From NCBI GenBank assembly GCA_037308085.1, contig CP147779.1:1184001-1248000 (forward strand): a DNA stretch of 64,000 nt. Reading direction: 5' to 3'. The position numbers and the translations under genes were made by a program. Below the pieces are notes generated by a model. It was given only the letters and a program-made list of their open reading frames with translations, was not told the DNA's origin and made no database searches. The stretch comes from Promethearchaeati archaeon SRVP18_Atabeyarchaeia-1. GTDB taxonomy: Archaea > Asgardarchaeota > Atabeyarchaeia > Atabeyarchaeales > Atabeyarchaeaceae. Below, one piece after another: positions 21,360 to 60,822 of this stretch. Each line of letters opens with the position of its first letter. Within the stretch, counting starts at the first letter, position 1.

Positions 21360-21392
21360 GAAGCAAGCAGTTGACGTCCTGCGCTCGTTTCT

Positions 21393-22040
21393 CTACTTCC
21401 CAGATATTTTTTCGGGAGACAATAGATCTGGAATGTTTGTTACGATGGCGTCTACTCCGAGTCTGATCAGTCTCTCAGCAACGCGGCGATTGTTCACTGT
21501 CCAAGCGAAGATGGCGAGATTGTGCTCGTGGAGTTCTTTGACCATCTCCTTGGTGACTAACTCATACTGAGGTACCATGCAACTGGCTTTCAGTTCCAAC
21601 GCTTTCACGGCAATGTCACGGATTTTCTAGGAGAATATCTGACCTGTCGGTATCTGCTGGTTCAGTTCCTTTACCTTCCTGATCGCGTCAGCCATGAATG
21701 AAGTCACAACCACATTCTTCACAGCGTCTTCTGACTCCAGCAGGTCAACCAGCAACTTCTCTGTTCCCACGCCTTTCACCCCAATAACGACTCCTACCTT
21801 GTTCTCAGATAACTTGAGGGCTTCTTGAAGCGTGGGTATCTTCTCACCTTTTCCCGCATCGAGTCTCCTGATCTCTTCAAGGGTCATTTCCCTGACTGCT
21901 CCTTCTCCATTTGTGGTGCGGTTAACCGTATCGTCGTGTATCACCACTAGCTGTGCGTCTCTCGTGGAGTGAACGTCCACTTCAACCATGTCAGCGCCAA
22001 GCTCAATTGCCGTTTCTAAAACCTTGAGCAATTTTATTGG
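21393..22040 (-). pseudogene. Glycerophosphodiester phosphodiesterase pseudogene
   Basis: AIELGADMVEVDVH, VVIHD, IPTL, AWTVN, GVDAIVTN motifs; in-frame TAG at 21627-21629; N-terminal HRG motif missing; expected IEVK appears as IGVK. Confidence 0.85.
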
Positions 22041-22327
22041 TTTTATTCGGAGCGTCGGCCTCCTCCGTCCCACCTGCTCCGGCGGCACCAGGCCTACCGC
22101 CGGCGTGCAGGTACTCATGCTTCATCGAAGGCCAAGAGGCGTCCGCACTCACGGTAAACGGGTAGCCGCAGAGGCGCGGCCCACGAGAGAAGATGGCCAA
22201 CGAGGCCAGCCTGTTCCTATCGTAAGCAGCGCCGCAGGCGACCGGGCTCATGAAGAATGACGGAACGCGCTACTTCCAAACAAGAATTGGCCCAAGCATG
22301 CTTCTCTCTCGGTTTCCCCGTGGTTGC

Positions 22328-23734
22328 CTATGTCTGAATAGTCACATCTTGGATCCTGATCGGCGGCGATACTACGCACGATGGATAGAGCATTGGCGTA
22401 CACTTCTCTGGCTTGTCTCCAATGGCATCTATCTTCTTCGCATAGTCAAAGATGTTCCCAGCTATCCTGACATCACTTGCCGGCGTGGTCAATTCGCCAT
22501 TCTCGATTCTGAGCCCATTCAACACAGTGACCGAGAAGGAACCGTCTGGTCTTGCAGTGAAGGCAGGGTCAGACCTCTCGATATATATGCCGTCCCTGAC
22601 TTCGCTGATCATGCTATTCAGGGACATGGCTCCCGGCTTGAAAACAAGGTTGGTCGGATAGATTCTCGGGAGTCGTCTGAAACTTCTATAGTAGAAATAG
22701 TCTACACTCGGCATCTCCCATCTGACACAGTTGCCAGTGCTCTGAACAGATGCTATTCTTGCGCTTTGGCTATTGTGGAGGTAGCCTTTCAGAATGCCGT
22801 TCTCGACGAGGACCGTTCTCTTGGAGGGCATACCTTCGTCGTCCATCTTGAATGATGCAAGGCCTCCTTCGTAGGTTCCGTCGTCAACTAGGGTGAGGAT
22901 ATCAGATCCGATCTGCTTGCCTATTTTTCCCTCCAATGGAGAAGCCTTGTCCCTAACGTTATCGGCCAGAAAGGCGTTCGCAAACGCGTACGTGAAAAGC
23001 TCAGCCACGGCGTGTGGGCTTAGGACCACCGGCATCTTCTTGGGCTCAATCGTCCGGGCTCCACGATATTTCAGTATCTTACCAGAATAGTTAGATGCAA
23101 AGTTGCTAACATTGTCAGTACCTTTGACTGTCCTCTCGACATTATAGACCTCGATCTTGCTTTCTCTGTCTTCATACTTCGCAGATATTCCCAAAGCCAT
23201 TCTTACAAAGCTGCCATAGTCATCAACCATCAGCCCTTCGGTATTGACGACTGCGAATCCATGCCTAGATCGCCCGAAAAGAGAGTCGTAGACTGTTATT
23301 CTCTGAGGATCGACTTCCTTTGCAGCTTTCCTGAGAGTTACTAACTGGGACATTGCTTCTTCTGGTCCCATCTCAGCAGCATGCTTGTCGTAGATGCCAG
23401 AAACGCGCGGGTAACCGCTCGGTTTTGCTGGGAAGCTCTCAAGTCCAGGTTGAGGCTCAGCTACCTTCAACGCGCTACGAACTGATGACTTTATTGATTC
23501 ATCTTCGAGGTTGCTGAGATACGCGAATCCGAGGGAACCACCCTTTATCACGCGGATACCTGCCCCAGCGAGGGTTTGATCCCTTGTCGTAAGATTCTCC
23601 TTACCGCTGACTCTGGATATCCTCATAACAAGATTCTCTCTTGACTCAAGGAAGACTTCTACTCGCTCTGCGCCTTCCCCTTGAGCCATCTTGACGATTC
23701 TTTCGGCTGTGTGAGGCAAATCCATTGAGGACAA
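22328..23734 (-). CDS. pmbA: TldE/PmbA family protein
   Basis: GIRV..GG.LGF, DDEG, LVENGIL, STGN, IENGE. Confidence 0.9.
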   Translation of the reverse strand: MSSMDLPHTAERIVKMAQGEGAERVEVFLESRENLVMRISRVSGKENLTTRDQTLAGAGIRVIKGGSLGFAYLSNLEDESIKSSVRSALKVAEPQPGLESFPAKPSGYPRVSGIYDKHAAEMGPEEAMSQLVTLRKAAKEVDPQRITVYDSLFGRSRHGFAVVNTEGLMVDDYGSFVRMALGISAKYEDRESKIEVYNVERTVKGTDNVSNFASNYSGKILKYRGARTIEPKKMPVVLSPHAVAELFTYAFANAFLADNVRDKASPLEGKIGKQIGSDILTLVDDGTYEGGLASFKMDDEGMPSKRTVLVENGILKGYLHNSQSARIASVQSTGNCVRWEMPSVDYFYYRSFRRLPRIYPTNLVFKPGAMSLNSMISEVRDGIYIERSDPAFTARPDGSFSVTVLNGLRIENGELTTPASDVRIAGNIFDYAKKIDAIGDKPEKCTPMLYPSCVVSPPIRIQDVTIQT

Positions 23735-23781
23735 GGTCTAGGTTCCACTCCTTGCTATCAACTCATTGACAATTCAGCATT

Positions 23782-25203
23782 CTATCCTATTCTCAGCTCA
23801 CTGAATCTCAGGTGCGGGCCAGCCCCTGAGGTAACCATCGACTCCTCTTCTTCCGTCAACCTTATCTGAAGAACTTCAAAGTCACTCCCAACGCCATCAA
23901 TGTTCTTCAATTCATTGACAATGTCAAGGGTGAAGCTCGGCGACAAGACAGCTCTTCCAAGCTTTCCGTTCTTTATCAAATAACCCCTCTCCGCATTGCC
24001 ACTCATAATGCGCGTTGTGCTGGCGCCCGTGAGCCCCGTCAGATAGATACCATCCTTTATTCCTTCAACCATCTCCTCAAACTTCAGGTCGCCAGACTTC
24101 ACTATCGTGTTAGACACGTATGGGCGGGGCGCGAAGAGGGCATTCTGGCATCTTGCATGTCCTTCAACGACAGTATTGAACAGGTATGCAGTGGTCTTGC
24201 TGTGCAAATATGATTTCAACACGCCATTCTCAATCAGCGTCGTGGGTCTTGCTAAGACACCTTCCTCATCATACTTATAGAAAACTGGAAGCCCAGGAGA
24301 AGTTGGATCATCATAAAGAACGAACGACTCGGGCGCTAGTTGCTCACCTAGTCTGCCCGCAAACCCGCCAAGCTCACCTTCAGGTATCAGGGCATTATGA
24401 GCACAACCCATCAACCCCGTGCTTGACGCCAAGAGTCCAGTCAACCTAGGATCGAGGATAGCTGGAAGCTTCCCTGAGGGAGGCTCCTCTGCTGACAGAA
24501 GCTCAACGGCATCCTTGGCGACCTGTTGGGCCGAACTCAGCGGATCAGCCATGGCCATTAGTTCCTGCCCGGCGCTGGCACCGATTCTTCCTATGCACCT
24601 CGAGATTCTGGCGCCCTCGCGGGCGGTGACTATCGTGCGCAGTTCGGTGTACGGGTGCGATTCCTGTATCTTCGAGCCGTCTGAGTTGACGAAGAACCTC
24701 TCATAGACTTCGTCGATGTATCTAAAATTAGTTCCGACGATCCTTTCGTCGGTTGAGCGTGCCGCAGCATCACAGGATAGAATTATCTCCTTCTTCTCGT
24801 CGATGGGAACTTCCCTTGGGTCAGTCACATCCCCCAACTTCACGTCATCTTCGACTTGAGGCGCAGAGGCTAGTCCAACTTTCTCCTTGAAGTTCACGCT
24901 TGCTGCTTCAGCTATCTTCGTTGCCCTCTCGGCGGCTTGACCTATCGCCTCTTTGTCCTGTCGTGTAAAAATCGACAAGCCAATGGTTCCCTTGAGCACT
25001 CTTACGCTGCCAGCAAGTTCAATTGATGGAATTATCCGCTCAACTTTCCCATTAGTCACGACTATCATGTTGCTATAAATCCTCTGGAGTCTAATGTCTG
25101 CGTGCTCCACCTTATGCTTCGATACGAGTTTGCTAAGTGCAGCCTCGAGAATATCTATCACCGGACAATACCCCCCCGTTTCAGGCACGTCGCGTATGAC
25201 CAA
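23782..25203 (-). CDS. TldD-like protein lacking the HExxGH metal site
   Basis: ADIR, DDPT, YDEEG, GHAR, SNT motifs present; LLASSTG where HExxGH is expected; no C-terminal CGK. Confidence 0.85.
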   Translation of the reverse strand: MVIRDVPETGGYCPVIDILEAALSKLVSKHKVEHADIRLQRIYSNMIVVTNGKVERIIPSIELAGSVRVLKGTIGLSIFTRQDKEAIGQAAERATKIAEAASVNFKEKVGLASAPQVEDDVKLGDVTDPREVPIDEKKEIILSCDAAARSTDERIVGTNFRYIDEVYERFFVNSDGSKIQESHPYTELRTIVTAREGARISRCIGRIGASAGQELMAMADPLSSAQQVAKDAVELLSAEEPPSGKLPAILDPRLTGLLASSTGLMGCAHNALIPEGELGGFAGRLGEQLAPESFVLYDDPTSPGLPVFYKYDEEGVLARPTTLIENGVLKSYLHSKTTAYLFNTVVEGHARCQNALFAPRPYVSNTIVKSGDLKFEEMVEGIKDGIYLTGLTGASTTRIMSGNAERGYLIKNGKLGRAVLSPSFTLDIVNELKNIDGVGSDFEVLQIRLTEEEESMVTSGAGPHLRFSELRIG

Positions 25204-47298: not shown

Positions 47299-47556
47299 CT
47301 ATTTCTTACTCGGCTTCACCGCAGTCTTCTTCGCAGGCTCCTTGTTGGCTTTCTCCTTCTTTTCTGCCCCCTTCTTTGCGGATTTGCGGCAAGCTCCCGT
47401 TGGACACACGTCGACACAGGCCCAGATATCCGTGCATTTCTCGGGATGTGCCAGAACTGATTTCTCTTCACTATCCATTTCGAGAGCGTTGTTGGGGCAG
47501 GCCTGCACACAAGCTTGGCAGCCAATGCAGGTCTCCCTGTCAATTTCTGGTGGGAT
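47299..47556 (-). CDS. Ferredoxin with Lys-rich tail; ATC at the start position
   Basis: PPEIDRETCIGCQACVQACP...CTDIWACVDVCPTG; GGTGA SD 6 nt before ATC; in-frame TGA just upstream. Confidence 0.85.
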   Translation of the reverse strand: MPPEIDRETCIGCQACVQACPNNALEMDSEEKSVLAHPEKCTDIWACVDVCPTGACRKSAKKGAEKKEKANKEPAKKTAVKPSKK

Positions 47557-47693
47557 ACGACATCACCTTCCAATCCATCTGTGTGATGATACCTCCATCA
47601 TCGATCATCTAATAAGACTTTCCTTGTTACGGGAATGAGAGTGGAAGAGTCTGCACTCCTCTCTTGCACACATCTGATGCGAGTCGCAGGAGG

Positions 47694-49085
47694 TCACCGA
47701 TTAACTCGCTGATCCCTCTTCTTCACATGATCCCTGATGAGTCTCTCAAATTCGTCTTTCGGCACAACTAAGCATCTACGGATTCCCTGGCGTACCATGG
47801 TGGCCTTGAGTTTTCCGCGCTGGCACCAACTGTTCAATGTTCTGCGTGAGATGTGCGCCATCCTCGAAACATCTATGAGCTTCACGCCTTCGCTCTCAAT
47901 TCTCCTAGTCTCTTCTCTCTGTTGCTCTGCCTTCCGCAATACTCTCTCAAGTCTTGCAATTTCGCTTTGCTGAACCACAAGATACTTTAGACTTCCTTCA
48001 CGCACAAAAGCGGTCTCAAGTTTTCCTTGCTGATGCCATCGCAACAGTGACGGATATGAAATGCCTAACATTCCAGCTAGATTCATGAGTCTTACTCCAT
48101 GTCTTCTGATCCTCTTTGTCTTATCTTCCTCTATGAGAGCTTCCTGTTCGACTCTTTTGGCTTCATCCACCGGGATATAGTACCAAGATAGCGACGATTT
48201 GCCCAGGGCCAGTTTCTTCCTGAGATGTCTTATCCTTCCAGATTTGATCCATCTCTCCACGGTGAGATAACTAACGTTTAGCATGCGGGCAACTTGGCCG
48301 GTCGTCAAATAGCCTCTTCTCTCGCTTCTACACTCATCTACTCTCTTCAACCAATCAACAGCCTTGTACGAGAACTCAGCGATTCCTGCATCAAGCAACG
48401 CTATTATTCCAAGTTTCCGAATATAAAGAACAGTAGGTCCATTGCTGCGGACACGTACACGTGTGCTCGCTGGAGCAAGGCACTCAACAAAGCCCTTTGC
48501 ATAACCAATGAGAAACAGATATCTGCTTTGGGTGATGCTCCATTTCCATTGACCGATTGCGCCAAAGCACGGTTTTTTCTCGCCTTTCTCGACACACACT
48601 TGGCAATTTCCGTCTCCATCAATAAGCCCTGCAATAAAAGGGATACCACACTCGACACTCGCCAACTTGTTCTCTTCAAGAAATCTATTCACTGCATCTG
48701 GGCTGTCTCTGAGAGCACTCTTCCTTGGAAGAAACTGAAATAGTGCTTTTGAGTAGGTTAACACAATCCACATGTCTTTCCGCTTGTCCTTGTGAATTTG
48801 CGGGTTTGAAGCGATTCGTCTCAGCAGTCCGGCTATCCTTCGAGCCAGCTCTAACTCATCTATGTTCAAACAGAAGCCAACGCGATACGAGTGGGACTTC
48901 CTCCTCATCGTTTTCTTGCCCAGATGGGAGTATCCGTCTGCAATGTATAACCCAAGCAAATAGGCCAACTCTTTCTTGGAAAGGGCAGTAATGTTTAGGC
49001 AGCGCGTTGGACACATATGTATTCTCACTCGTTTGCCCCGGTAGTAACCTGTGCCATAGAAAAATACGCTGATCATATGATACAA
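47694..49085 (-). CDS. Double-motif LAGLIDADG endonuclease fused to three MerR/excisionase-type HTH domains (start may be 49016)
   Basis: LAYLLGLYIADG and FIAGLIDGDG; YLTTGQVARMLNVS..TV.RW...G plus two similar units. Confidence 0.88.
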   Translation of the reverse strand: MYHMISVFFYGTGYYRGKRVRIHMCPTRCLNITALSKKELAYLLGLYIADGYSHLGKKTMRRKSHSYRVGFCLNIDELELARRIAGLLRRIASNPQIHKDKRKDMWIVLTYSKALFQFLPRKSALRDSPDAVNRFLEENKLASVECGIPFIAGLIDGDGNCQVCVEKGEKKPCFGAIGQWKWSITQSRYLFLIGYAKGFVECLAPASTRVRVRSNGPTVLYIRKLGIIALLDAGIAEFSYKAVDWLKRVDECRSERRGYLTTGQVARMLNVSYLTVERWIKSGRIRHLRKKLALGKSSLSWYYIPVDEAKRVEQEALIEEDKTKRIRRHGVRLMNLAGMLGISYPSLLRWHQQGKLETAFVREGSLKYLVVQQSEIARLERVLRKAEQQREETRRIESEGVKLIDVSRMAHISRRTLNSWCQRGKLKATMVRQGIRRCLVVPKDEFERLIRDHVKKRDQRVNR

Positions 49086-49151
49086 AGACCATGAGAACTA
49101 TGGCAACACATGAAAGAGCATAGTGCCGATAGCCCGATGGGTGAATCCAGG

Positions 49152-49286
49152 GTGAGTAGTCAATCTAAGACGACGATAGAGTTATCGATGGAAACTAGGA
49201 ATCGACTGAAGGCACTAGGCAGAAAGGGTGAAACATACGATCAAATTATAAAGAAGCTTCTGAGGCTGACCAAACAAGCCACATGA
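49152..49286 (+). CDS. Small RHH/antitoxin-like DNA-binding protein, 44 aa (not in the ORF track)
   Basis: MSSQSKTTIELSMETRNRLKALGRKGETYDQIIKKLL matches the archaeal TTI...T..RL...G..GETYD.II..L pattern. Confidence 0.8.
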   Translation: MSSQSKTTIELSMETRNRLKALGRKGETYDQIIKKLLRLTKQAT

Positions 49287-49482
49287 AGATGGCCCTACAA
49301 AACAGGGTCTTCTTGACAGTGCACAAAATGCTGAAGACCTAATTCGTCAAAATAAATAATCGAGACCTCAGAGCATAAAGGAGACGGATAGACGCAAGCA
49401 ACCAGAAGACTAATCGAAACCTCAAAAAGAAAGGCTCTTTGACATGTAGCTAAACCAGGATAGTGTTAACTTCTCTTTCAGC

Positions 49483-49515
49483 TATGCATGTTTCCCCGTC
49501 GATTTCTGGCGGCAT
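49483..49515 (-). pseudogene. Displaced ferredoxin 5' fragment (MPPEIDGETCI)
   Basis: ATG with GGTGA SD (49526-49522) and TTATAA box (49567-49562); 9 of 10 residues after the start match 47553-47524. Confidence 0.85.
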
Positions 49516-49681
49516 GTAGAATCACCTTTTGCTTCCAAATCTCTGATATCAGTCGCTCTTATTATAAGATTTTCTTCTTTTTTTTGGATGCCTCCAATTC
49601 AGCCTCAAGACAAGCGGGATGGTTTGCACAGGTTTAAAAAGAGACGCCGGGAAGGTGAAGTGATGAACGAGGTCCGTAATT

Positions 49682-50665
49682 ATGTCTGATATCTTCATCT
49701 TGCTTTCGCTCTTATCTGCAATTCTAGTCGGGTTCTCAGTTGCCATGGAGAGAAAGGGCCTCTCACAGCTGCCTGAAATAACACCTGGAAAAATCGCGAG
49801 GAATCCAATAAGAGTGGTTTTAAGCTTGATTCTCTGCAAGCTTTGGATCGTCGGTTGGATCATCGCACAAGTAGGCTGGGCTCTTTGGGTTCAAGCGATT
49901 AATATAGGCGACTTCAACGTGGCGAAAACACTGAGCAGTCTCAGCATAGTTGTTGCCACCCTGCTATGTGTTCGTCTATTGGGCGAGAGACTTAACCACA
50001 TAGAAAAAGCAGGCATCATTCTGGTTACTTTGGGAACGCTATCCGTATCGTTGGAGTCTCAAGTAACGAAACCAGGATTCGTAGACTACAATGCGTTCAT
50101 AGCTTTCAATGGAATCGCTTTGGGGTTCGCCTTTTCCCTCATGATAGCAAGCGGCATTAGGAAGAAGGAGCAGGGAAGACCAATCTGGGAAGTCTCGTCT
50201 GCTACCGCAGCGGGGATTTTCTACTCAGTATCCGCGCTCTTTCAGAACCTTGCCAGTTACACGACTCCGAGTGGTCAGGCAGGGTTTAACCTGTTCTCAA
50301 TTCAGAGTTGGCTGGCGTTTCTACTGAATGCTCCATTTATCGTTGGCTATCTGATCATATTGTTGGGATTCTTTTCAATTCAATCAGCCATGAGTCGCGG
50401 AAGAGCTTCTATCGCATACCCCATCTCAACATCACTTGGCATAGCTATACCAGTCTTGGGCTCAGCGCTAATATTCGGCGAGATGCTAGTTGTGCCCATC
50501 GATGGAACCGTCCAGTTCCCGTTATCATATCTGCGTCTTATCGGCACCATTCTGGCAATAGTAGGTGGCGCTCTGATCCAAACTCACTCTTGGAGGATGT
50601 TCGGTAGAAGAAAAGGCGTAGGAACTGCGGTCACCAAGAAAAGCGGGGAGAAACAACCTTCATAA
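49682..50665 (+). CDS. DMT/EamA-like membrane transporter
   Basis: About 10 hydrophobic segments in two repeats; LLGERL, FGE. Confidence 0.75.
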   Translation: MSDIFILLSLLSAILVGFSVAMERKGLSQLPEITPGKIARNPIRVVLSLILCKLWIVGWIIAQVGWALWVQAINIGDFNVAKTLSSLSIVVATLLCVRLLGERLNHIEKAGIILVTLGTLSVSLESQVTKPGFVDYNAFIAFNGIALGFAFSLMIASGIRKKEQGRPIWEVSSATAAGIFYSVSALFQNLASYTTPSGQAGFNLFSIQSWLAFLLNAPFIVGYLIILLGFFSIQSAMSRGRASIAYPISTSLGIAIPVLGSALIFGEMLVVPIDGTVQFPLSYLRLIGTILAIVGGALIQTHSWRMFGRRKGVGTAVTKKSGEKQPS

Positions 50666-51039
50666 TGAAAAGAAAAACTGGCAGCCGTTGTTTAGGGGTT
50701 TTGTTCCCCTTCTTCAACCCAGTCAAGCCTCTCCTCGCGCGGCAAGTTGGAAACGTTTCCTGCTCATCAACGTTTCTAGATATCGTATCGCAGATAGGCG
50801 GTCTGATGCCTTCATCGATCGCTCTCCTGCGCAGCTTCCTGATCATCACTGGTGTATCTGTTTTCCCCAGACACTTGTCAATTCAGCCTCCAATAAGTGT
50901 GATATTGGTTTCTCCACTGTTATGTTGATTGTCTGCGCAGAAATGTGAGAGAATGCTTATATCCCAACGAAAGTCAATTACGCGAAAAGAGTAACTGTCC
51001 TCATTCCATTCTGCTTGAATGATAGGGTGGGATCACAAG

Positions 51040-52347
51040 ATGAGCGAGAAATATGACATCGCAGTAGTGGGAGCGGGAATCTTCGGCGTGGCGTCGGCAT
51101 ATTACTTGCAGAAGAATAACCCAGGCAAGAGAATACTCCTCATCGACAGGTTGGCCGATGCAGGGCAAGCAAACACGGCTATGAGCGCCGCGGCCGTCAG
51201 GAATATGTTCTCCTCAAGAACAAACCAGATCCTGACTGATACAACGATCAGTTACTACATCAATATTCAGGAGAAGTTGAAGTTCGATCTCGACCTTCAG
51301 CTGGTGGGATATCTATGGCTTCTGACGCAGAAGCAGCTCGACAACCCTCTTAACAGGAAATGGATGGAGAAAATGGATGCAAACAACATCAAGTACGCTC
51401 TTTATGAAGGAAACGAGTTAAAGAAGAGGCTCCCAGAGTTGAGTATGAAGGTCTCAGATGACGAAGAAGCGAAAATAATGGGTTTAGAGGATGTCGCCGC
51501 AGGGCTCTATGGGCCAAAGTGTGGCACTTGTGATCCGAGCAAACTTGTCGCCTTTTACAAAAATGAATTTGTGAAGATGTCAAAAGTAAAACCAATGTTC
51601 AGCACCGAGGTAAAAGGGCTGATTCTGGAACCGACAAACAAGCTTGGCGTTCCCGGTGAGCCGTTCATATGGCAGGACTCAACCGTAGTCGGAGTGAAAA
51701 CAGCGAAAGGCGAGATCAGGGCTGATACTGTCGTCATGACCGCTGGAACGTGGGTCAATCAGCTGACCGATCCGATTGGTGTCGACGGCCGCGTAAAAGT
51801 AAAGAAGCGGCAGCTCTTCAGAGTTTCAACGGAAGCAAGTAAGGCACTGAAGTCAATTCTGAATGCAAAGGGATTCAATAAGTTCAACCTACTCCCGTTC
51901 ACAATCCTGCCGAGAGGAGTCTATCTGCGCCCCGTAAGGCAGGAAGAATCATTCTGGGTTGGGTGCGCAGACAAGCTAAACCGGGCTTTCAAGTATGTGC
52001 AGACAGAAGATGACTGGAAGAGCGAGAACACGTACTTTGAGCAGAGTATGTACCCCGTACTGTCAAAGTACCTGCCCGCTTTCAGGGATATCAGACCAGC
52101 TAGTGGATGGGCAGGCGCCTACGCATACAGTTATGATGCTGTTCCTTATGTCTACAAGGAAGCGGGAATGATCTTTGCCACTGGCGATAGTGGGTCTGGA
52201 ATCATGAAGGGAGACGCCCTTGGAAGAATGGTTGACGCCCTTTACAGAGGAGAGAAGGTGACTACTCTCTATGACGGAGTTAAGGTCGACACCGATACAC
52301 TCAGTGTAGGCAACCGCAAAGTTGAGAAAGAAGATGTGCTGATCTGA
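51040..52347 (+). CDS. FAD-dependent oxidoreductase (DAO/sarcosine-proline dehydrogenase-like)
   Basis: DIAVVGAGIFG, SAA, WAG.Y, GDSGSGIMK. Confidence 0.88.
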   Translation: MSEKYDIAVVGAGIFGVASAYYLQKNNPGKRILLIDRLADAGQANTAMSAAAVRNMFSSRTNQILTDTTISYYINIQEKLKFDLDLQLVGYLWLLTQKQLDNPLNRKWMEKMDANNIKYALYEGNELKKRLPELSMKVSDDEEAKIMGLEDVAAGLYGPKCGTCDPSKLVAFYKNEFVKMSKVKPMFSTEVKGLILEPTNKLGVPGEPFIWQDSTVVGVKTAKGEIRADTVVMTAGTWVNQLTDPIGVDGRVKVKKRQLFRVSTEASKALKSILNAKGFNKFNLLPFTILPRGVYLRPVRQEESFWVGCADKLNRAFKYVQTEDDWKSENTYFEQSMYPVLSKYLPAFRDIRPASGWAGAYAYSYDAVPYVYKEAGMIFATGDSGSGIMKGDALGRMVDALYRGEKVTTLYDGVKVDTDTLSVGNRKVEKEDVLI

Positions 52348-52448
52348 CACCTTCAAATCACTTAAAAGGAGAAAGAGGAAGAAGAAAGCAACAATGCCCA
52401 GGCATCACATCCTCAAAATGCCGGCAAGTCATCCAGGATCTAGGTGGG

Positions 52449-53891
52449 CTAGCTAGATTTCTTTGCCCACTCGCCTACCCCAGTGACGTTCGGGTCATCT
52501 ATTTTGACGTAGCCGTCTTGTTGAAGTTCCTGTGAGTACCTTCTTGCTATAGCTATTGGCTGACCTATTGCACGTGCTATTTCGGTGAAAGACAGAGTGC
52601 CCAGATCTTTGAGGATGGTGAGTATCTTGTATTTAGGCTCCTTTGACATGACTTTCACTATTCTGGCAACCTCGGCCTTCTTTTCGCTGAACTTGTCTTC
52701 AGTCTCTTCAACTATGCTCTTCAAATCTTGAACTTCTTGCTTTGCTCTCTGGTACGCTGTCTCCAGTTCTATTGCTCTGCTCTTGGCCTTCATCACATCC
52801 ACATTTTCAGTTCTGATTCTATCAACTTCCGATCTAAATGATTTGTTCTGAGTTTCAAGATCGCCAGCTCGAACCTCGGTTTCTGCGAGTTTTCCTTCAA
52901 GCTCGATGATTCTACCGTTTAGCTCCTCCGCCTTCTTCCTCTTTTCTTCGATGTTGTCCTCATACGCCTTCAGTCTAGCCTTGATCTCGCTCGTCTCGAT
53001 GATCTGCGATCTTAGGCGTTCGATCGTCTGCTGCTGATTTTCAAGCCTCGCCTTCAGTTCCTTAACTTCGATGCCTGTTTTCGCACCACTGGCAGCCTCA
53101 TTGAGTTCTTCTTCAAGCCGGACAACATTGCCCTGAAGTTCGCTCATCGTCGCCCGCTGCTCACTCATAATTGTGTCACGCTTCGCAACTTGCTCCTTGA
53201 GCTCTCTCACTTGCTTCTCGTTAATGGTCAACTCGTCTTCCAGGCTTCTTCCATGGGCGCCATATATCTCAGCTTGCTCTTTGAGAGAAGCTAGCAACCT
53301 GTACTTTGAGTTTGTCAGCTCCTCTCTGAAGCCCTTGAATTTCCCCACGAGGTCCCTGGAGAAGGATTCGAGTAGTGTCTCTTCGAGCTTCTTGACCTCG
53401 GCGACAACTACCTCGGAAATAGCATTCTCGACAAGGGGTGCAAAGGCCTTCATTCTCAGCCTCTCAGTCAGCTTCCTGGCGATCTCGGTTCTCAAGTCGA
53501 CGAGCTTGCTGCGGAACTCTAGTAGCTCGGAGGACAGGCTTGCTGCGATGTTTCTCTCAAGCGATTGGACGGTGCTCGCCATCTCATCCAGTTTCTTAAA
53601 CATGTGCTCAATGCTCGGTGTCGAAGCTGCAGGTTCTTGCTCTTCCGTAATCTCTTCAGAAGTGGCTACGGTTGTTCGTGAGGCAGACCCCCTCTGAGGA
53701 ATCGGGACCGACATTTCGGCAGCCTTGGGTTTTATCCCTTCAGCAATCGGGCCGCCAGTCGGAGCTAGAATAGTATCTACTTCCTTGGGTGTGAGCCCCA
53801 TTTCGCCGAGCAGGTTCTTAACAACCTTTTCCTGCTCTTCTCTCAGATCATCAGCCACCTTCTTTGATTTCTCATCTTCCTTGTCGGACAA
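52449..53891 (-). CDS. Long coiled-coil protein with C-terminal winged HTH
   Basis: Heptad-rich E/K/L region; KYKILTIL...LSFTEIARAIG...L...GYV. Confidence 0.75.
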   Translation of the reverse strand: MSDKEDEKSKKVADDLREEQEKVVKNLLGEMGLTPKEVDTILAPTGGPIAEGIKPKAAEMSVPIPQRGSASRTTVATSEEITEEQEPAASTPSIEHMFKKLDEMASTVQSLERNIAASLSSELLEFRSKLVDLRTEIARKLTERLRMKAFAPLVENAISEVVVAEVKKLEETLLESFSRDLVGKFKGFREELTNSKYRLLASLKEQAEIYGAHGRSLEDELTINEKQVRELKEQVAKRDTIMSEQRATMSELQGNVVRLEEELNEAASGAKTGIEVKELKARLENQQQTIERLRSQIIETSEIKARLKAYEDNIEEKRKKAEELNGRIIELEGKLAETEVRAGDLETQNKSFRSEVDRIRTENVDVMKAKSRAIELETAYQRAKQEVQDLKSIVEETEDKFSEKKAEVARIVKVMSKEPKYKILTILKDLGTLSFTEIARAIGQPIAIARRYSQELQQDGYVKIDDPNVTGVGEWAKKSS

Positions 53892-54072
53892 CTCTCAAGT
53901 CACCCTAAACCACCAAATTCAAAATACGCTCTGACTCCCGGAGAACTGGTCGTGCAGTCCGGGAGCGCCCCGTATAATATTCTGCGTGGATTTCCTTATC
54001 AACCTTTTCTAACTATGCGTAGCTGAAGACAATCTATGATGCGAATCGGTCCGCGGATCCTAAAGGATATCG

Positions 54073-54828
54073 CTAGAGCGATATCTCCAACCCATCTCTT
54101 GCAAGGATCACATTTCCCGTGTAGACTCTCTTAGCTTGGGCAACTAGGAGCTGTTCCTTTCCCTCGTTTACACTGCTCCAGTGGAAAAGAACGAGTGTTT
54201 TTACGCCAGCTTCCTTCGCCACGGTTGCTGCTCCCACAGAGGTCGAGTGGTTGCTGCTCTTTGCCTTCTCGACCATTTCCTCAGGAAACGCAGAATCATG
54301 TATGAGTAGTTTGCAGCCTTTCGCCAGTTTCGAGACGTCTTTCGACGGTGCCGTATCGCCAGTGTAGCAGAATGAAGCTCCATCTCTCTCAAAACGATAC
54401 GCCAATGTGGTCGGATTATGGATCGATTTGGTCGTTGAAACCATATTATCGTACTTGGCGCCTGGAGCCAGCTCCCTGAACTTAAGTGGGAACGTCAATG
54501 AGTCAAGCGGCGTGTTGAGGATCCTAAGAAGAGACATGACGGTTTCCTCAGTTTTCTCAGGGCCAATTATGGAAAGGGGCTCCTTCCTTGACTCCCTTAG
54601 CCACATTGCCCATATTAGACCAAGAAGACCAGAAACATGGTCGCTGTGAAGGTGAGTAAGAAAAACTATCTTCAGCGAGTCAAGTGACCCCAGTTTCCTA
54701 AGAAGAGACTGAGTAGCTCCCTCACCACAATCGAAAAGTACATCACGATCGACCAGAATTGCGGGAAGAGAACGATCAGGAGAGATCGAGCTTCCACCTG
54801 AGCCAAGTATAGTTATCTTCAAAACCAA
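54073..54828 (-). CDS. RNase Z-like metallo-beta-lactamase
   Basis: LGSGG, FDCGEG, THLHSDH, YTGDT, HST, ARDG. Confidence 0.88.
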   Translation of the reverse strand: MVLKITILGSGGSSISPDRSLPAILVDRDVLFDCGEGATQSLLRKLGSLDSLKIVFLTHLHSDHVSGLLGLIWAMWLRESRKEPLSIIGPEKTEETVMSLLRILNTPLDSLTFPLKFRELAPGAKYDNMVSTTKSIHNPTTLAYRFERDGASFCYTGDTAPSKDVSKLAKGCKLLIHDSAFPEEMVEKAKSSNHSTSVGAATVAKEAGVKTLVLFHWSSVNEGKEQLLVAQAKRVYTGNVILARDGLEISL

Positions 54829-55027
54829 TCATCCTCTCGCAAACACGTACACGTTGACTAGCATGGCCGGTTTCTAATCAACCTTTCGCTAGATTAGTCA
54901 AATGTTGAAATGCAGCAGTGATAACGTTTATCACTTTACCTGACCATTCTAATTCATCAGACCATTGAATCGATTCTGCTTTACGGGCAACTTGGTTCAT
55001 CATGCCATGGGAGAAGGGACACACGGG

Positions 55028-56299
55028 ATGGCTAAAGAGAATGAAACCAGCGGAAAAGAGACCGTGATTGTGGTCGGCTTCAACGCTAGGCCCATAGTGT
55101 CATCCGCGAAGCGGGCGGGCTTCAAGGTTCTCGCAGTGGACTATTGGGGAGACACCGATCTCGTTGCCACAGCAGACGACACCGAAACTGTACTCAAGCA
55201 GGTTCCTGGAAAGCGACCAAGAGAAGAGTTGAGGAGGCCTGCGTCTGATCTCCTGTTTGATTGCGTCGAGAGGATTGCCTCCAGACACCGTGGAGAGGCT
55301 GACTTTATCTTGGTGGGAAGTGGACTCGACGACCGCCCTGATCTCTGGCTAGAGCTTGAAAGCACTGCCCCGATACTCGGGAATCCCCCTGCCACTTTAG
55401 CCAGAGTCAGAGATCGTTTCCAACTCTATGAAACAGCATCGAGGCTCGGCATAGCAACTCCCACTACTTTCAAAGCTTCAAGCCTCAAAGAGACGCTTGA
55501 CTTCGCCAACAAGATCAGGTATCCCGTGGTTGTGAAACCTCCGGGAGGAGGCGGGGGTCTGGGCATACGATTCGCAAAAACAGAGTCGGAACTTAGAAAA
55601 CTCTACTTGACTGAAATGAAGCCACACTTTGGCGATACCGTCTTCCTGCAGGAGTACATAGAAGGAGACCATACAAGTGCATCTATAATGGGTAACGGCA
55701 GTAGCTGCGTCGTACTGACCGCAAATGAACAACTGATTGGATTGGGCGAGCTTGGAGCCAGTGCGCCTTTCGTTTGGTGTGGCAATGTTGTCCCATTAGA
55801 TCGATCTCCAAACAATAGGAAGGTTAGGGCCATAACTGCAGCCGCAAAATCGCTCGGGGAGAACTTGAAGCTCTATGGTTCTAATGGCTTCGATTTCGTC
55901 TTGAGACGAAGAGATGAGACTCCAGTAATAATAGAATGTAACCCTCGTTTCCAGGGCACGCTCGAATGCGTTGAGATGGCCACAGGGATCACTCTTGTGA
56001 ATGAGCATGTCAAAGCATGCAGAGGCGAACTCCCAAGAAAGCTACCAGCACCAGAACGGTATGTCGCCAAGATGATACCTTTCGCCAAAGAAAGATGTAT
56101 GGTCGGAGACCTCAAAAGTATCCAAGGGGTGGGCGATGTGTCACCCGAGGGCGTGATATGTGAGCGCGGTGATCCGATCTGCACTGTTCACGGAACAGGG
56201 GAAACAAGAGATGAGTCCATGAAGAATGCGAGAAAGTCAGTAGCAGAAATCTACAGAAGAACAACAGTGCAGGGAATCTTGGAGAATTCCGAGGAATAG
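55028..56299 (+). CDS. ATP-grasp family ligase (archaeal)
   Basis: VVKP.GGGGG, QEYIEG, GFDF, IECNPRFQG. Confidence 0.88.
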   Translation: MAKENETSGKETVIVVGFNARPIVSSAKRAGFKVLAVDYWGDTDLVATADDTETVLKQVPGKRPREELRRPASDLLFDCVERIASRHRGEADFILVGSGLDDRPDLWLELESTAPILGNPPATLARVRDRFQLYETASRLGIATPTTFKASSLKETLDFANKIRYPVVVKPPGGGGGLGIRFAKTESELRKLYLTEMKPHFGDTVFLQEYIEGDHTSASIMGNGSSCVVLTANEQLIGLGELGASAPFVWCGNVVPLDRSPNNRKVRAITAAAKSLGENLKLYGSNGFDFVLRRRDETPVIIECNPRFQGTLECVEMATGITLVNEHVKACRGELPRKLPAPERYVAKMIPFAKERCMVGDLKSIQGVGDVSPEGVICERGDPICTVHGTGETRDESMKNARKSVAEIYRRTTVQGILENSEE

Positions 56300-56334
56300 A
56301 TGAAAAAGAGGCACAAGCGCAGTCCCCGTCGTGC

Positions 56335-57768
56335 TCACGCAGATATTTTGACGTTTGAGAACCTGATGGATGGCGTGATTGTGACTCTGTGCCTGAGCTC
56401 ATCTTCGTAGGTTCTGACGTCGTTACCTACTTCATTTACGTTCCTCAGAAGCTGCACTATGTCTGACCCTATCATGGCTTCCTTCACGGGGTATTTTATC
56501 TCTCCGCCCTCGATTTTGAACGCTGTTTGGACTCCAATTGAAAAGGCCCCTGACACTTGATTGGAAGTGTGAGCACCTATTACGGTGTATGCGAGTACTC
56601 CGTCTTCAACTTCTGATATTAGCTTCTCAAGGTCCTTAGTTCCGGGTCTAACTACGATGTTGCTTGTCTCTATTATTGGTTCAGAACTATAGGTTCTGAG
56701 TCCCGTGACATCCTTTCTTGTTGAGTTACCTGTGCTTTTGGTGTTAGCTTGATTGGCCCAAAGTGAATCATAGAGGAAAGAATTGATGACTCCCTTCTCG
56801 ATTAGGCGTGTGTTCTTTCTTGGGTTGCCTTCATCGTCGAATGACTGCGAAGCGAATCCCTTCTCAATTACGCCGTTATCCTCAATCGAGATGAGATCAG
56901 ATAGAATCTTCTTCCCCAACTTACCCGCAAAGGGGGTTTTGTTCCGTTGAAGGTTGTCTCCCATAAACGCTGGATGTATAGTGTGTGCGAAGAGATCACC
57001 CACGGCATATGAGTGCAGCACTAGATCCATGCTTCTGGTCTCGATAGGTTTCCTCGCGAGCTGGTCCACACACAGCTTTGAGACCGTCTTACCCAGCTGC
57101 TCCACATCGACGTCACTTGAGTTCCTTGCAAGTTGCAGGTAGTCTACACCTGAGACATCCCCATCGCCCTTAGCCATAGATGAAACTCGAGCGTCGACGA
57201 GCGTCTCAGTCTCCTCAAGGTCTACACCAGCGCTATTTGCTATTGCCCTATTGTATGTAATGTACGTGATTGTGCCACTGCCCGATTCTACGCGTTTATC
57301 GTAGTTTCTCATTGCTTCGGCAAGGGTTCTTCCCTTGTCGATCAGCTCCTCTATTTGGGCGTTCCTAACCTGTTTGTCAGAGATTCCCCTGACCTTCTGG
57401 TACGTGCCCTTTGCTGGAAATGCCTTGAACCTTGGATCCTCTTCCCTTGCCCGAGCGGTTCTCAGAGCTTTCTCTATGGTTTCATTCATCGGTTTTTCAG
57501 ATAGGTTTGAAGTGCAGGAGAACCCTAGTTTCTTGCCCATTGCTACGCGAATACCCAAGCCTGACTGGACTTTGCGCTGGGCGAATGTGACTTGAAGTCT
57601 CTCAATGAAACATGCGGATATGACCCTTCGGAGTGCAAAGGCCTCAGCTTGCGTAGCTCCAGTCTTCTCAGCTCGAGCCACTGCCTTGGACGCGGTTGGA
57701 GCCAAGCCGAGGTAACTGTTAAGCTTGCTCTGCTCTCCGGGACCAGTTCTAGCTTTGATGTTCGCCAT
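56335..57768 (-). CDS. pmbA: TldE/PmbA family protein
   Basis: GLGIRV, FDDEG, STGN, GAHT.N..SG.FS, IEGGE. Confidence 0.92.
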   Translation of the reverse strand: MANIKARTGPGEQSKLNSYLGLAPTASKAVARAEKTGATQAEAFALRRVISACFIERLQVTFAQRKVQSGLGIRVAMGKKLGFSCTSNLSEKPMNETIEKALRTARAREEDPRFKAFPAKGTYQKVRGISDKQVRNAQIEELIDKGRTLAEAMRNYDKRVESGSGTITYITYNRAIANSAGVDLEETETLVDARVSSMAKGDGDVSGVDYLQLARNSSDVDVEQLGKTVSKLCVDQLARKPIETRSMDLVLHSYAVGDLFAHTIHPAFMGDNLQRNKTPFAGKLGKKILSDLISIEDNGVIEKGFASQSFDDEGNPRKNTRLIEKGVINSFLYDSLWANQANTKSTGNSTRKDVTGLRTYSSEPIIETSNIVVRPGTKDLEKLISEVEDGVLAYTVIGAHTSNQVSGAFSIGVQTAFKIEGGEIKYPVKEAMIGSDIVQLLRNVNEVGNDVRTYEDELRHRVTITPSIRFSNVKISA

Positions 57769-57774
57769 TCTGGT

Positions 57775-57849
57775 TCAACCTCCACCAACCACCACATTCT
57801 TCACTCTAACACTGGTGCTCCCATTTCCCAGGGGCAGACTACCCTATTC
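57775..57849 (-). pseudogene. Displaced tldD 3' fragment (E*GSLPLGNGSTSVRVKNVVVGGG*)
   Basis: 14 of 24 codons give the same residue as the last 24 codons of tldD (59466-59395); stop lies 6 nt before the pmbA ATG. Confidence 0.85.
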
Positions 57850-59466
57850 ACGACTCGTCATTCATTTCTCATCAATGTTTAGCCAAGACTAGACTATATG
57901 TTTATCGCGATAGTTTCAGAGTGCGTGGAAAGTTGACTTAAATGGTTCTGAGCCTGAAGTCACTGGTTTTCTGCAGTATGTGAGACTGCACATGCATCAC
58001 GAGACCCTCATGGATTCCGTCTGATCTTGGTCTACTTACGGCACCCCAATGGCAAGCGGGAAGCTTAGCGAGGAATACGGCATAGACAAGAGAACTCTTC
58101 GCCGCGGGCTAGTAAAACTGATTGGCGAGAGAGAATACAAAGGGATCATGGATCGAAATGTGAAACAGAGGAAGAAACAGGTTCCGCTAGAGTGGGCACT
58201 CAGAAGACTAAGGAACGCGGAGTTGTTAACTAAACTCAGTAACGAATATGGAGTAAGCAGGAAGACTCTGCGATCCGCCTTCCGGTTGCTGATCGGTGAA
58301 GGAGAATACAGCGCGATAATAGACAGAAAGGCTAGGAAGCAGGTTCCAATCAAAAAGGTGTTAAGGCGATTCAAGAGCGGAGAGACATTGAAGAGTCTTT
58401 GTATGGAATATCATGTCACGTGGGAAACCCTGAGGAACATTCTCACGAAGGCAATTGGTGAAGAAGAGTACCGGAAATTAGTTCCAATGCACAGGGGAGG
58501 AAGAGCGCGGAGACAACTTCCAGTTCAGGAAGTTTTGACGAGAGTCAAAGCCGGTCAGTCACTAGGAAGACTTGCCAAAGCTTACAATGTAAGCTGGCTG
58601 ACTTTGAAGCGTAGGCTGGTAGAACTAGTTGGCAAAGACGGATATAAGTCGGCTAGAAAACGAACAACGCGAATCCGAGTGAAACCTCGAAGGGCCACAG
58701 TGGGATACGGCTCTCCTCTTGCAAAGGAAAATGGGGCTGACAGCCTTATTGAACTCAAGGTCAGAATGCTCCTACAGAATAACAGGGTTTCCTTCGGATA
58801 TCGGGAAAGCCTAGTTGTCAGGGGACACTGCTATGAACCAGACTTCATGTTCGGTGATAGGACCATCGTTGAGGTCATGGGAGTCACGAATACTGAGTAT
58901 TGGACGCGGTGCCACAAGAAACTGTAAGATTACGTCGGAAGTGCCTATAGAGTCATTGCAGTGATACCAGACTACTTAATCGACATAAGAAGCAAGTATA
59001 TTCCAAAAGGAGTCAGCATGATCAGGTACAACGACTTCACGAATAACATCGAAAGATACATAAAACAATTAGTGAACAAAACTAATATCGACAACTCAGC
59101 CATTCACTGATGAACTGCCACTCACGCGTGGTGATTTCAAGCATCATCGACAGTATTGCTGCAGGGGCTGGAAAAGATCCCATATTCTTCTTCCGTTAGA
59201 TCTCGACCCAGCTTGTCAAACCCTTTCCGACGTCGGATTTTGATTGGGGGAATCATACTGATGGGAGATTAGTCGGAGTTCCAGATGGGGCCCATAATAT
59301 ACCCCCTTGCCGAAGTAGAGCCTTGGTACTACCCTGCCTGTTTCAAGGAAATCGGTTGGAGGTTTCTCGCATGTTTCCAGTCTGGCGACCACTACTGCCC
59401 GCCGACAACAACATTTCGGATTCTTGTGCTACTCCCTCCATTACCCACGGGCAAATTGCTCTGTTC
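57850..59466. mobile_element. Endonuclease cassette at the tldD 3' end, carrying a replacement C-terminus (boundaries approximate)
   Basis: Splits the tldD-pmbA operon; tldD 3' end present on both sides. Confidence 0.7.
58049..59110 (+). pseudogene. Tandem-HTH-repeat + PD-(D/E)xK (Vsr/DUF559-like) endonuclease with an in-frame TAA
   Basis: Four ~54-aa repeats (L..EYGVS..TL...L..LIGE.EY), then S.IE...YEPDF...IVEV.G...YW; TAA at 58925-58927, frame stays open 60 more codons to TGA at 59110. Confidence 0.78.
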
Positions 59467-60822
59467 ATTCTTACCACAGAATCCTATGCCAGCCACCGAG
59501 AAGTCTTTTCCGACTGCATCGATATTCTGAAGTGTCTCCAGAGTTAGTCCGCTCAATGAGACGTCGAGGAGCGGTTTCGTGACTTGACCCTTTTCGATCA
59601 AGAAGGCTTCCTGGGCTGAGAACTGGAACGATCCTATCGCGATGTTAACTTGGCCTCCTCTGGTTCCTTTCACATAAATGCCGTTTCTGATATCCTCAAT
59701 TAGTTCATCAAATGAGTAGTCTCCAGGGGCGATGTACGTGTTGGACATGCGAGGGATCGGACGGAAGTGGTATCCTTGGGCTCTGGCTCCCCCGTTTGGT
59801 GCGAGATTTAGCTTAGCCGCGGCTTCCCTGTTCAAGATGTATTCTCGAAGTACGCCTTTCTCGATTATCGTTCTTTTCTTCGCTAGTGTTCCCTCAGAAT
59901 CATATTTGAAAGACCCGAAGCCATCAGGGACGCTTGGATCATCGTAGACTGTCGCCACTTCTGAACCGACCTTCTGTCCAAGCTTCCCAGTCAGTACACT
60001 CTCCCCAGAGATTACAAAGTCAGCTTCAGCGGCATGTCCAAGCGCTTCATGGACGAAGACGCCTATGTGCTCGGGATCTGCAACCACGGTAAATCGGCCA
60101 CCTGTTGCTTGCTCAGCTTTCAACAAAGCCGAAGCTTTGTTGGCAGTCTCCTTAGCGGTCGAGTCAAGGTCCTTCTCAAGAAACTTCTCAAATCCTCCCA
60201 TAGCACCGATCCTCTTCCGGTACTGACGGATCTTGTCCCCCTCCTTAGCGACTGGAACGAAGACGAGTGATCCCCTTGAAGGCTCACCTGTGATCTTCGA
60301 GCCTTCGCTATTGAGAAAAATGGTTTTCCCATAAGAATCGCCGTAGGTGACGGAGGCGCTAGCTATACTTGGGTTCTCTCGGATCACACGTGAGAGCTTC
60401 AGCGCTAGACCAAGCTTCTCATCGATCGGGACATTGGCGAAAGGCGTCTTCGCCTTGGCAATAAGTGAGTCCTCAATCTTCCTCAATCGGGCTATCTTGA
60501 CCTTCTCCTTGAGGTGCTCACTCGTCGCCTTAGCCATCTTGAAAGCGGCTTCGACGCCCCCCATGATCTCTTCGCGCGATATATCAGATGATGCAGCAAA
60601 ACCCCAGGCGCCATTAGCGAGCACTCGAATTCCGATTCCCTCACTGTAACTTGAAGTTGCCTGGTCAATCGTTTTGTCCCCCACGACTATCGATGTCGCG
60701 CTCATCATCTCGATCCTCATATCTGTGTACTCGGATCCAAGCTTGTCGGAATAATCAAGAGCCTTCTCAGAGATATCAAGAACATCCAATACCTGTAGAA
60801 CCTCCGAAAACAAGTCACTCAA
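59392..60822 (-). CDS. tldD: TldD family metalloprotease
   Basis: GIGIRVL, HEALGH, YDSEG, PRMSNT, GGQV, CGK. Confidence 0.95.
   Translation of the reverse strand: MSDLFSEVLQVLDVLDISEKALDYSDKLGSEYTDMRIEMMSATSIVVGDKTIDQATSSYSEGIGIRVLANGAWGFAASSDISREEIMGGVEAAFKMAKATSEHLKEKVKIARLRKIEDSLIAKAKTPFANVPIDEKLGLALKLSRVIRENPSIASASVTYGDSYGKTIFLNSEGSKITGEPSRGSLVFVPVAKEGDKIRQYRKRIGAMGGFEKFLEKDLDSTAKETANKASALLKAEQATGGRFTVVADPEHIGVFVHEALGHAAEADFVISGESVLTGKLGQKVGSEVATVYDDPSVPDGFGSFKYDSEGTLAKKRTIIEKGVLREYILNREAAAKLNLAPNGGARAQGYHFRPIPRMSNTYIAPGDYSFDELIEDIRNGIYVKGTRGGQVNIAIGSFQFSAQEAFLIEKGQVTKPLLDVSLSGLTLETLQNIDAVGKDFSVAGIGFCGKNEQSNLPVGNGGSSTRIRNVVVGGQ

Follow-up and report, generated by a model that had tools for sequence, protein, structure and literature searches.

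Why should an archaeal chromosome carry the ends of some of its genes twice, once joined to the gene body and once stranded on the other side of a nuclease gene? We addressed this question in a stretch of 64,000 nucleotides (here "the window"; positions 1,184,001–1,248,000 of contig CP147779.1), which is part of the complete 2.81-Mb chromosome of the Asgard archaeon SRVP18_Atabeyarchaeia-1 of the Atabeyarchaeia (G000). Two cassettes in the window show this arrangement. One lies at the 5' end of a ferredoxin gene and contains a LAGLIDADG nuclease gene, named LAG0; the other lies at the 3' end of tldD and contains a second nuclease gene, named PDX0. They had been recognized earlier from the letters of the DNA only (here referred to as the sequence-only reading) and placed about 8 kb apart; the two cassettes stand, and the measured spacing is about 9 kb. 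We compared them with the genomes of Promethearchaeati archaeon LC30, of the same genus (G001), and "Candidatus Atabeyarchaeum deiterrae", of a sister genus (G002). Judging from these comparisons, the two cassettes are probably (at a probability of about 0.72) homing elements without intron or intein, which would work like the WHO elements of yeasts.

The resident ferredoxin gene is intact (47299–47556, minus strand; 2x[4Fe-4S], Pfam Fer4_7) and reads from an ATC codon. Its beginning is a replacement 5' end carried by the element (47524–47622, minus strand), in which a conserved leader with a hairpin and a GGTGAT motif is followed by ATC and 10 recoded codons (47556–47524). The hairpin in the 66-nt leader has the form GATGAT-GGAGGT-ATCATC (window 47554–47622, minus strand). 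The native 5' end, ATG and 10 codons, was located by tblastn and from the sequence as an orphan at 49483–49515 on the same strand. It retains its own GGTGAT ribosome-binding site (49521–49526), reads into unrelated element DNA and meets a stop after 21 codons. The two copies share 9 of 11 residues and differ by five synonymous changes and one replacement, plus ATC for ATG. Between G000 and G001 the resident gene is under purifying selection, with a ratio of nonsynonymous to synonymous substitution rates (dN/dS) of about 0.06. In G002, the ferredoxin gene represents the empty site: it starts with ATG, has a different neighbour upstream and possesses neither cassette nor orphan.

Between the two copies lies LAG0 (47694–49085, minus strand), which according to Pfam and alignment encodes a free-standing two-motif LAGLIDADG protein with three C-terminal domains of the helix-turn-helix (HTH) family HTH_17. 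The open reading frame (ORF) has 463 codons, and the probable start at 49016 would give 440 amino acids. Pfam recognized LAGLIDADG_3 (E 2.4e-8) and HTH_17 (E 5e-19, two clear units and a weaker third), and the catalytic acidic residues are intact in both motifs (D50-G51 and D156-G157-D158-G159, invariant among 11 homologues). A word-indexed protein search returned only four relatives of LAG0. Inside the element and divergent from LAG0 stands a gene for a DUF7557 protein of 58 amino acids (49110–49286, plus strand; Pfam E 3.8e-9), which is conserved in the G001 element with dN/dS 0.12–0.14. From its sequence we take the product to be ribbon-helix-helix-like, and it is a probable regulator of the nuclease gene. 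As a whole, the LAGLIDADG-ferredoxin element looks functional. Single-base deletions inside the LAG0 ORF (48711 and 48822) were found in contigs of runs X4 and X5; they may be strain variants with a broken nuclease, or contig errors.

Splicing was considered and rejected for these cassettes. A bulge-helix-bulge (BHB) intron at the ferredoxin locus lacks an inter-junction helix, and its cofold energy of -32.8 compares with -28.8 ± 3.8 for shuffled sequences. Inteins are ruled out at both cassettes by stops and opposite strands, and Pfam found no Hint domain. The claim that the interval holds no transposase, integrase, intron or intein was thereby confirmed by Pfam and by the lack of BHB pairing.

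The second cassette separates tldD from pmbA. The tldD gene is intact (59392–60822, minus strand; Pfam, 75% identical to the G002 orthologue) and complete, with PmbA_TldD_3rd covering its protein up to residue 475 of 476. Its last 24 codons and TAG (59392–59466) are the replacement 3' end joined to the gene body. PDX0 (58049–59107, plus strand) is convergent with tldD, from which it is separated by 284 nt; it encodes four HTH repeats and a nuclease domain resembling T7 endonuclease I and Bax1. At 199 nt from the PDX0 start, the orphan 3' end of tldD (57775–57849, minus strand) comprises 24 codons interrupted by a TAG and ends in TGA, and only 6 nt separate it from the ATG of pmbA (56335–57768, minus strand), the original downstream partner according to Pfam and G002 synteny. 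The segment 59466–59395 thus recurs at 57849–57778, with 14 of 23 aligned residues identical (E 4e-4) and many synonymous differences. In G002 there is an equal gap of 6 nt between the tldD stop and the start of pmbA, with neither nuclease nor duplicate; the tldD orthologue is absent from the G001 assembly. Hence, as the sequence-only reading had it, each cassette sits at a host gene end, and each terminus is present twice and recoded mainly at synonymous sites. In the run X4 contig, the orphan tldD end has a 1-nt deletion at 57831, which may be a strain variant or a contig error. Two more TldD/PmbA gene pairs occur at window 18619–25161, so that the window contains at least three pairs, one of them invaded.

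The layout is not an artefact of assembly. All four junctions are crossed by independently assembled contigs from four runs of two studies at identities of at least 99%, therefore the assembly is not chimeric. Moreover, the layout of the ferredoxin cassette is identical in the independent G001 assembly.

The nuclease of the tldD cassette belongs to a fold different from that of LAG0. Its C-terminal domain, which follows the four N-terminal HTH repeats, had no Pfam match at gathering level, and Phage_endo_I was weakly matched by four members of the PDX0 family. A profile of the domain matched T7 endonuclease I (E 1.2e-6), Bax1 (2.6e-5) and I-Bth0305I (1.4e-3). The AlphaFold model (predicted local distance difference test score 85) gave Bax1, VC1899, AF1548, I-Bth0305I and T7 endonuclease I as top matches in Foldseek, with E-values all above 1e-3. 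In VIA-align it reached Z scores of 7.8–9.2 to BstEII, I-Bth0305I, Bax1 and Vsr; for I-Bth0305I (PDB 3r3p) the values are Z 8.7 and a root-mean-square deviation of 3.3 Å over 94 residues. An alignment of seven family members contains an invariant E, P-D-F, E..G and K, namely E28, P56-D57 and E67; the position of the canonical (D/E)xK lysine is occupied by A, G, T, M or S, and the invariant lysine comes 16 residues further. Because the profile search, VIA-align and Foldseek agree, the assignment of the modelled domain to PD-(D/E)xK holds at fold level, with the canonical lysine not in place. Two nuclease folds with tandem HTH domains, LAGLIDADG_3 with HTH_17 and this one, are thus borne out.

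A related ORF was noticed elsewhere in the chromosome. At G000:C1:448500–452000 (locus L063), an ORF of 254 amino acids with a PDX0-type nuclease domain lies in an intervening sequence of the 16S ribosomal RNA (rRNA) gene. Small-subunit rRNA matches flank it on both sides, and the universal 3' motifs appear only after the ORF; a further insert seems to stand between the AAGTCGTAACAAGG motif and the GGATCACCT end. Such a position would fit a family of homing enzymes.

We then asked how general these duplications are. LAG0 has five paralogues in G000 and PDX0 three. At each nuclease locus we compared one flank with the other by tblastx, with a threshold of at least 27 bits and 300 random loci as control. 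Duplicates were present at 5 of the 10 nuclease loci of G000 and at 15 of the 300 random loci (p 1.4e-4); over all loci the figure is 13 of 35 (p 2.4e-7). A genome-wide search was also made, in which the first and last 45 residues of every gene were compared with nearby non-genic DNA. Altogether, more than a dozen host genes have duplicated ends at nuclease loci, 5' ends being targeted as often as 3' ends. The duplicates are terminal pieces of 11–58 codons only and do not stem from decayed tandem paralogues, and the elements measure 1.6–2 kb with one nuclease gene. Of the 61 genomes of the phylum searched with this query, the three from Atabeyarchaeia were the only ones to give members of the LAGLIDADG-HTH family.

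In G000, the flank comparison added clear duplicates of the 3' ends of an M28 peptidase gene (59 + 33 bits) and a dodecin gene (44 bits), each with its two copies on the same strand. The gene-end search added the 3' end of an acyl-CoA dehydrogenase gene, which adjoins an ORF of 324 amino acids with two LAGLIDADG motifs and HTH, and that of a diphthamide synthase gene, which adjoins a LAGLIDADG-like ORF of 402 amino acids. An insert of about 5 kb stands behind an A/V-ATPase subunit gene (locus L054, G000:C1:599800–606600). It contains a DpnII-type restriction-modification pair, a SocA/Panacea-like gene and an ORF of 513 amino acids that is LAGLIDADG-like by motif only; at its far end, the last 33 ATPase codons recur as an orphan with 76% identity. 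Similar layouts were found in contigs of G001, G002 and metagenomes at the 3' end of a DUF1844 gene and the 5' ends of FAD oxidase and GPN GTPase genes. Metagenome and G001 contigs contributed four further 5' ends, including that of a helicase gene (58 codons, 109 bits). The 3' end of EF-2, beside the paralogue PDX2, is kept as a possible case: its same-strand match is weak (15 amino acids, 27 bits) and lies at a distance of 1 kb, and the synteny with G002 does not continue downstream. One rule was tried and abandoned. The intact gene stood on the 3' side of the nuclease gene at the first nine loci, and this failed at the metagenome locus L067.

Wherever comparison was possible, the site is empty in another genome. 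The M28 peptidase site is empty in both G001 and G002; the DUF1844 and FAD oxidase sites, occupied in G002, and the GPN GTPase site, occupied in G001, are empty in G000. Many nuclease copies are pseudogenes. The sequence-only reading had named four outcomes that would speak against it, namely relatives that lack the nucleases and keep the duplicates, decayed tandem paralogues as the source, orphan ends unlinked to nuclease ORFs, and a chimeric assembly. All four were checked, each with a result in its favour, and its interpretation is supported overall.

The ferredoxin element, which occupies the same site in G000 and G001, also contains a record of its movement. Between the two genomes, LAG0 has a synonymous divergence (dS) of 0.73 and the DUF7557 gene one of 0.74; of the six host genes tested, five are saturated (at least 2.7 or not computable), with four-fold sites 28–40% identical, and the exception is the strongly codon-biased EF-2. 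At four-fold sites, the element is 59% identical (59–60% in LAG0 and the DUF7557 gene) against 33% for its neighbours (p 3e-9). The low dS of the element is not due to codon bias, because the effective number of codons of LAG0, 56.9, indicates none; that of EF-2 is 40.7. In a sliding window, the young block begins at the DUF7557 gene and reaches about 20 nt beyond the boundary of the duplication. A stretch of 120 nt with the ferredoxin leader and the replacement codons is 90% identical, which is the maximum of the locus and above any coding part. Over 35 nt, the resident starts of G000 and G001 agree at 34 positions and the orphans at 28. Moreover, the G001 orphan matches the native G002 start at 31 of 35 positions and its own resident copy at 27. 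Since the resident starts are nearly identical and the G001 orphan is closest to G002, it is the replacement 5' end that moves with the element, and the orphan is the host's own, as in the WHO model. The claim of a replacement end from a donor lineage is thereby upheld for ferredoxin. The three-way comparison of DUF1844 has the same trend (97 vs 92 of 145). An element so much younger than its flanks indicates horizontal spread into one site, which is the mark of homing.

On the reading that we favour, the unit would consist of a site-specific nuclease gene and a recoded copy of a host gene end. The nuclease would cut the unoccupied allele at the boundary between gene body and gene end, and the break would be repaired from the occupied copy, with the gene body as one arm and the stranded old end with the DNA downstream or upstream of it as the other. 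In this way the recipient would acquire the nuclease gene together with a gene end that resists cutting; the host gene would stay intact, and its previous end would be pushed aside and decay. Occupied and empty alleles would meet by DNA exchange or through polyploidy. We infer the cleavage and its position, the resistance of the replacement end and the way in which the alleles meet.

Several observations weigh against this reading. First, PDX0 is a decaying copy, which cannot be active at present because it is truncated. Its intact frame has 292 codons (58049–58927), and a TAA at 58925–58927, present in the independent contigs of all runs that cover PDX0, removes about the last 60 residues of the nuclease domain. 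The in-frame continuation to 59107 aligns with intact paralogues, therefore this copy is truncated. Second, tldD is the one solid gene-end case of the PD-(D/E)xK class, besides the weak EF-2, and about half of all nuclease copies are without a recognizable duplicate. Third, in G000 as well as in G001 the first codon of the resident ferredoxin is ATC and is preceded by an in-frame stop; it is ATG in G002 and in both orphans. The view that the replacement keeps the gene working agrees with the purifying selection on ferredoxin and with the complete tldD; an ATC start does not fit such a clean design. Fourth, a joint across either cassette, which would represent the empty allele, was not found in the contigs of four DNA runs, and contigs drop rare variants.

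Fifth, some gene-end duplications have no nuclease of their own. At G000:C1:823400–830100 (locus L051), a serpin gene is bracketed by a CCG/Fe-S gene, whose 3' end is intact, and an orphan of the last 43 codons of that gene. This orphan is 91% identical, which marks a recent gene-end duplication, without its own nuclease, that directly adjoins the LAGLIDADG cassette at the acyl-CoA dehydrogenase 3' end. Similarly, a MEDS-domain gene with no nuclease is followed by an orphan 3' end of guaA. Gene-end duplication can thus arise or persist without a resident nuclease: either the nucleases act in trans or have been lost, or a nuclease-independent route also operates, such as homology-anchored illegitimate recombination. 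An orphan N-terminus of CTP synthase was also seen 151 bp upstream of its gene with nothing between, a possible footprint of a lost element (CTP synthase and guaA orphans: G000:C1:776421–776477 and 1778907–1778999).

If that route were the general one, a fragment from a relative would anchor on a conserved gene end and duplicate it, and the nuclease genes would be frequent cargo, not the cause. The serpin and MEDS genes are bracketed as it predicts, and foreign-looking replacement ends are expected from any import from a relative. It does not account for the strong association with two families of site-specific nucleases, nor for one element at one site in two species that is younger than its flanks. 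The cassettes are, besides, minimal, with one nuclease gene and a gene end, and the serpin insert has a LAGLIDADG cassette as its immediate neighbour. We regard this explanation as unlikely.

The sixth point concerns the origin of the replacement ends. For tldD and the M28 peptidase, the comparison of resident, orphan and relatives gives 55–76% identity throughout, so that only the ferredoxin 5' end has a demonstrated donor lineage. The orphans of tldD and the M28 peptidase gene are no closer to relatives than to their own resident copy, which would suit a gene end duplicated in situ, in the manner of a long target-site duplication, when an unrelated element inserted, followed by neutral decay and with no foreign end involved. 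Stops, frameshifts and indel polymorphism in the orphans are what such decay predicts. However, duplication in situ also predicts that each orphan is closest to its own resident, contrary to the G001 ferredoxin and DUF1844 comparisons above, and the resident 5' end of ferredoxin is part of the young element block. LAGLIDADG enzymes leave 4-nt overhangs, against duplications of 33–170 nt here. This alternative is very improbable.

It is no more credible that the nuclease-HTH proteins have been domesticated, as regulators or for gene-end switching with the orphan as a silent cassette, as with HO at MAT. LAG0 is under purifying selection against its G001 orthologue (dN/dS 0.17) and is paired with the DUF7557 gene, and HTH arrays suit regulators; HO itself is, according to PMC7282813, a domesticated relative of WHO elements. 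Nevertheless, the orphans are broken by stops and frameshifts and unusable as alternative ends, many copies are pseudogenes, and sites occupied in one genome are empty in the next. Remnants of integrase-driven elements with an attachment site in the gene end and the recombinase gene since lost, for which the 5-kb insert behind the ATPase gene and the guaA orphan of G000 might speak, as integrative elements commonly insert into gene 3' ends and bring a replacement end with them, are the least probable of all: Pfam found no integrase or transposase domain in any cassette examined, no core identical between the duplicates exceeds about 8 nt, and the small one-nuclease elements use 5' ends as often as 3' ends.

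Homing elements of the kind that we favour have precedents outside archaea. Those named by the sequence-only reading, in fungal mitochondria and T4-like phages, are apt, and the closest one was missing from it: the WHO elements at FBA1 in Torulaspora and Lachancea yeasts (Coughlan et al. 2020, PMC7282813; Osborne et al. 2026 preprint, 10.64898/2026.08.13.744650). A WHO element combines an endonuclease gene with a resistant copy of the 3' part of the host gene, a resistance that the replacement ends here would share. With each insertion the gene receives a new end and the old one stays behind as a decaying fragment, with no need for RNA or protein splicing, and gene end and gene body have different histories, as they do here at the ferredoxin locus. 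The differences are also clear. WHO proteins are derived from inteins and contain Hint, LAGLIDADG and zinc finger domains, whereas the present elements have a plain two-motif LAGLIDADG protein with HTH_17 and, in addition, an unrelated T7-endonuclease-I-like nuclease. Pfam found only LAGLIDADG_3 and HTH families in the nuclease proteins and neither a Hint domain nor a zinc finger, so they are not of the WHO family. WHO elements use the 3' half of one host gene in a diploid meiotic nucleus; here more than a dozen genes of an archaeal chromosome are involved, by 5' and 3' ends, and the replaced pieces are much shorter, at 11–58 codons. Cleavage has been demonstrated for WHO6 and is predicted for the present elements.

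Other systems share parts of this design. SegF and MobE of phage T4 are free-standing endonucleases with intron-less homing. Their intergenic genes encode enzymes that cut the nuclease-less allele and are copied by repair together with flanking markers, and the nucleases here may cut likewise; the phage systems have no duplicated recoded gene end, and resistance comes from polymorphism in the neighbouring gene. In fungal mitochondria, the atp6 hybrid gene of Allomyces is a case of a free-standing homing gene with a gene duplicate. Fragments of atp9 stand next to a free-standing LAGLIDADG ORF in Armillaria (PMC6506933). Common to these and our cassettes is an ORF, LAGLIDADG or GIY-YIG in the fungi, beside a conserved gene and a truncated second copy of its end; the fungal cases concern organelle genomes with few sites each, and ours a cellular chromosome with an element family and both N- and C-terminal targets. 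The LAGLIDADG enzymes of archaeal rRNA introns (I-DmoI type) and the EDxHD/Vsr-like I-Bth0305I (3r3p) have the same nuclease folds as those described here. They ride in spliced introns, whereas our cassettes lie outside the reading frame, with neither splicing nor BHB pairing.

Full-text searches of the accessible literature returned no report of such elements from archaea, in agreement with the sequence-only reading, which was aware of no description from archaeal chromosomes, and two papers on the genomes and mobile elements of Atabeyarchaeia mention neither LAGLIDADG genes nor these cassettes. Three things are new in the window: a version for 5' ends that includes the ribosome-binding site, a second nuclease fold and dS evidence for horizontal spread. 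As for the neighbourhood, a protein of 480 amino acids with a long coiled coil and a C-terminal winged-helix domain (IclR/MarR-like) is encoded between the two cassettes (52449–53891, minus strand).

A wider proposition can be put forward at even odds. A nuclease gene with a replacement gene end, neither intron nor intein, may constitute a third category of homing element, one that is established in Asgard archaea and continues to move there, employs at least two unrelated nuclease folds and replaces the 5' ends (with ribosome-binding site) and 3' ends of many housekeeping genes; its spread between species-level lineages would imply that homologous chromosomes meet regularly, by DNA exchange or fusion. 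If our reading is true, the WHO-type strategy extends from yeasts and organelles to archaeal chromosomes and is tied neither to one nuclease family nor to gene 3' ends. Many short pseudogene fragments in Asgard genomes, and genes that begin or end oddly, would then be readily explained, which matters to annotators, as chimeric gene ends distort trees. The LAGLIDADG-HTH and T7-endonuclease-I-like-HTH enzymes are candidate rare-cutting nucleases, each with a natural target. Finally, the elements would provide natural markers by which the exchange of DNA among lineages of Asgard archaea can be followed.

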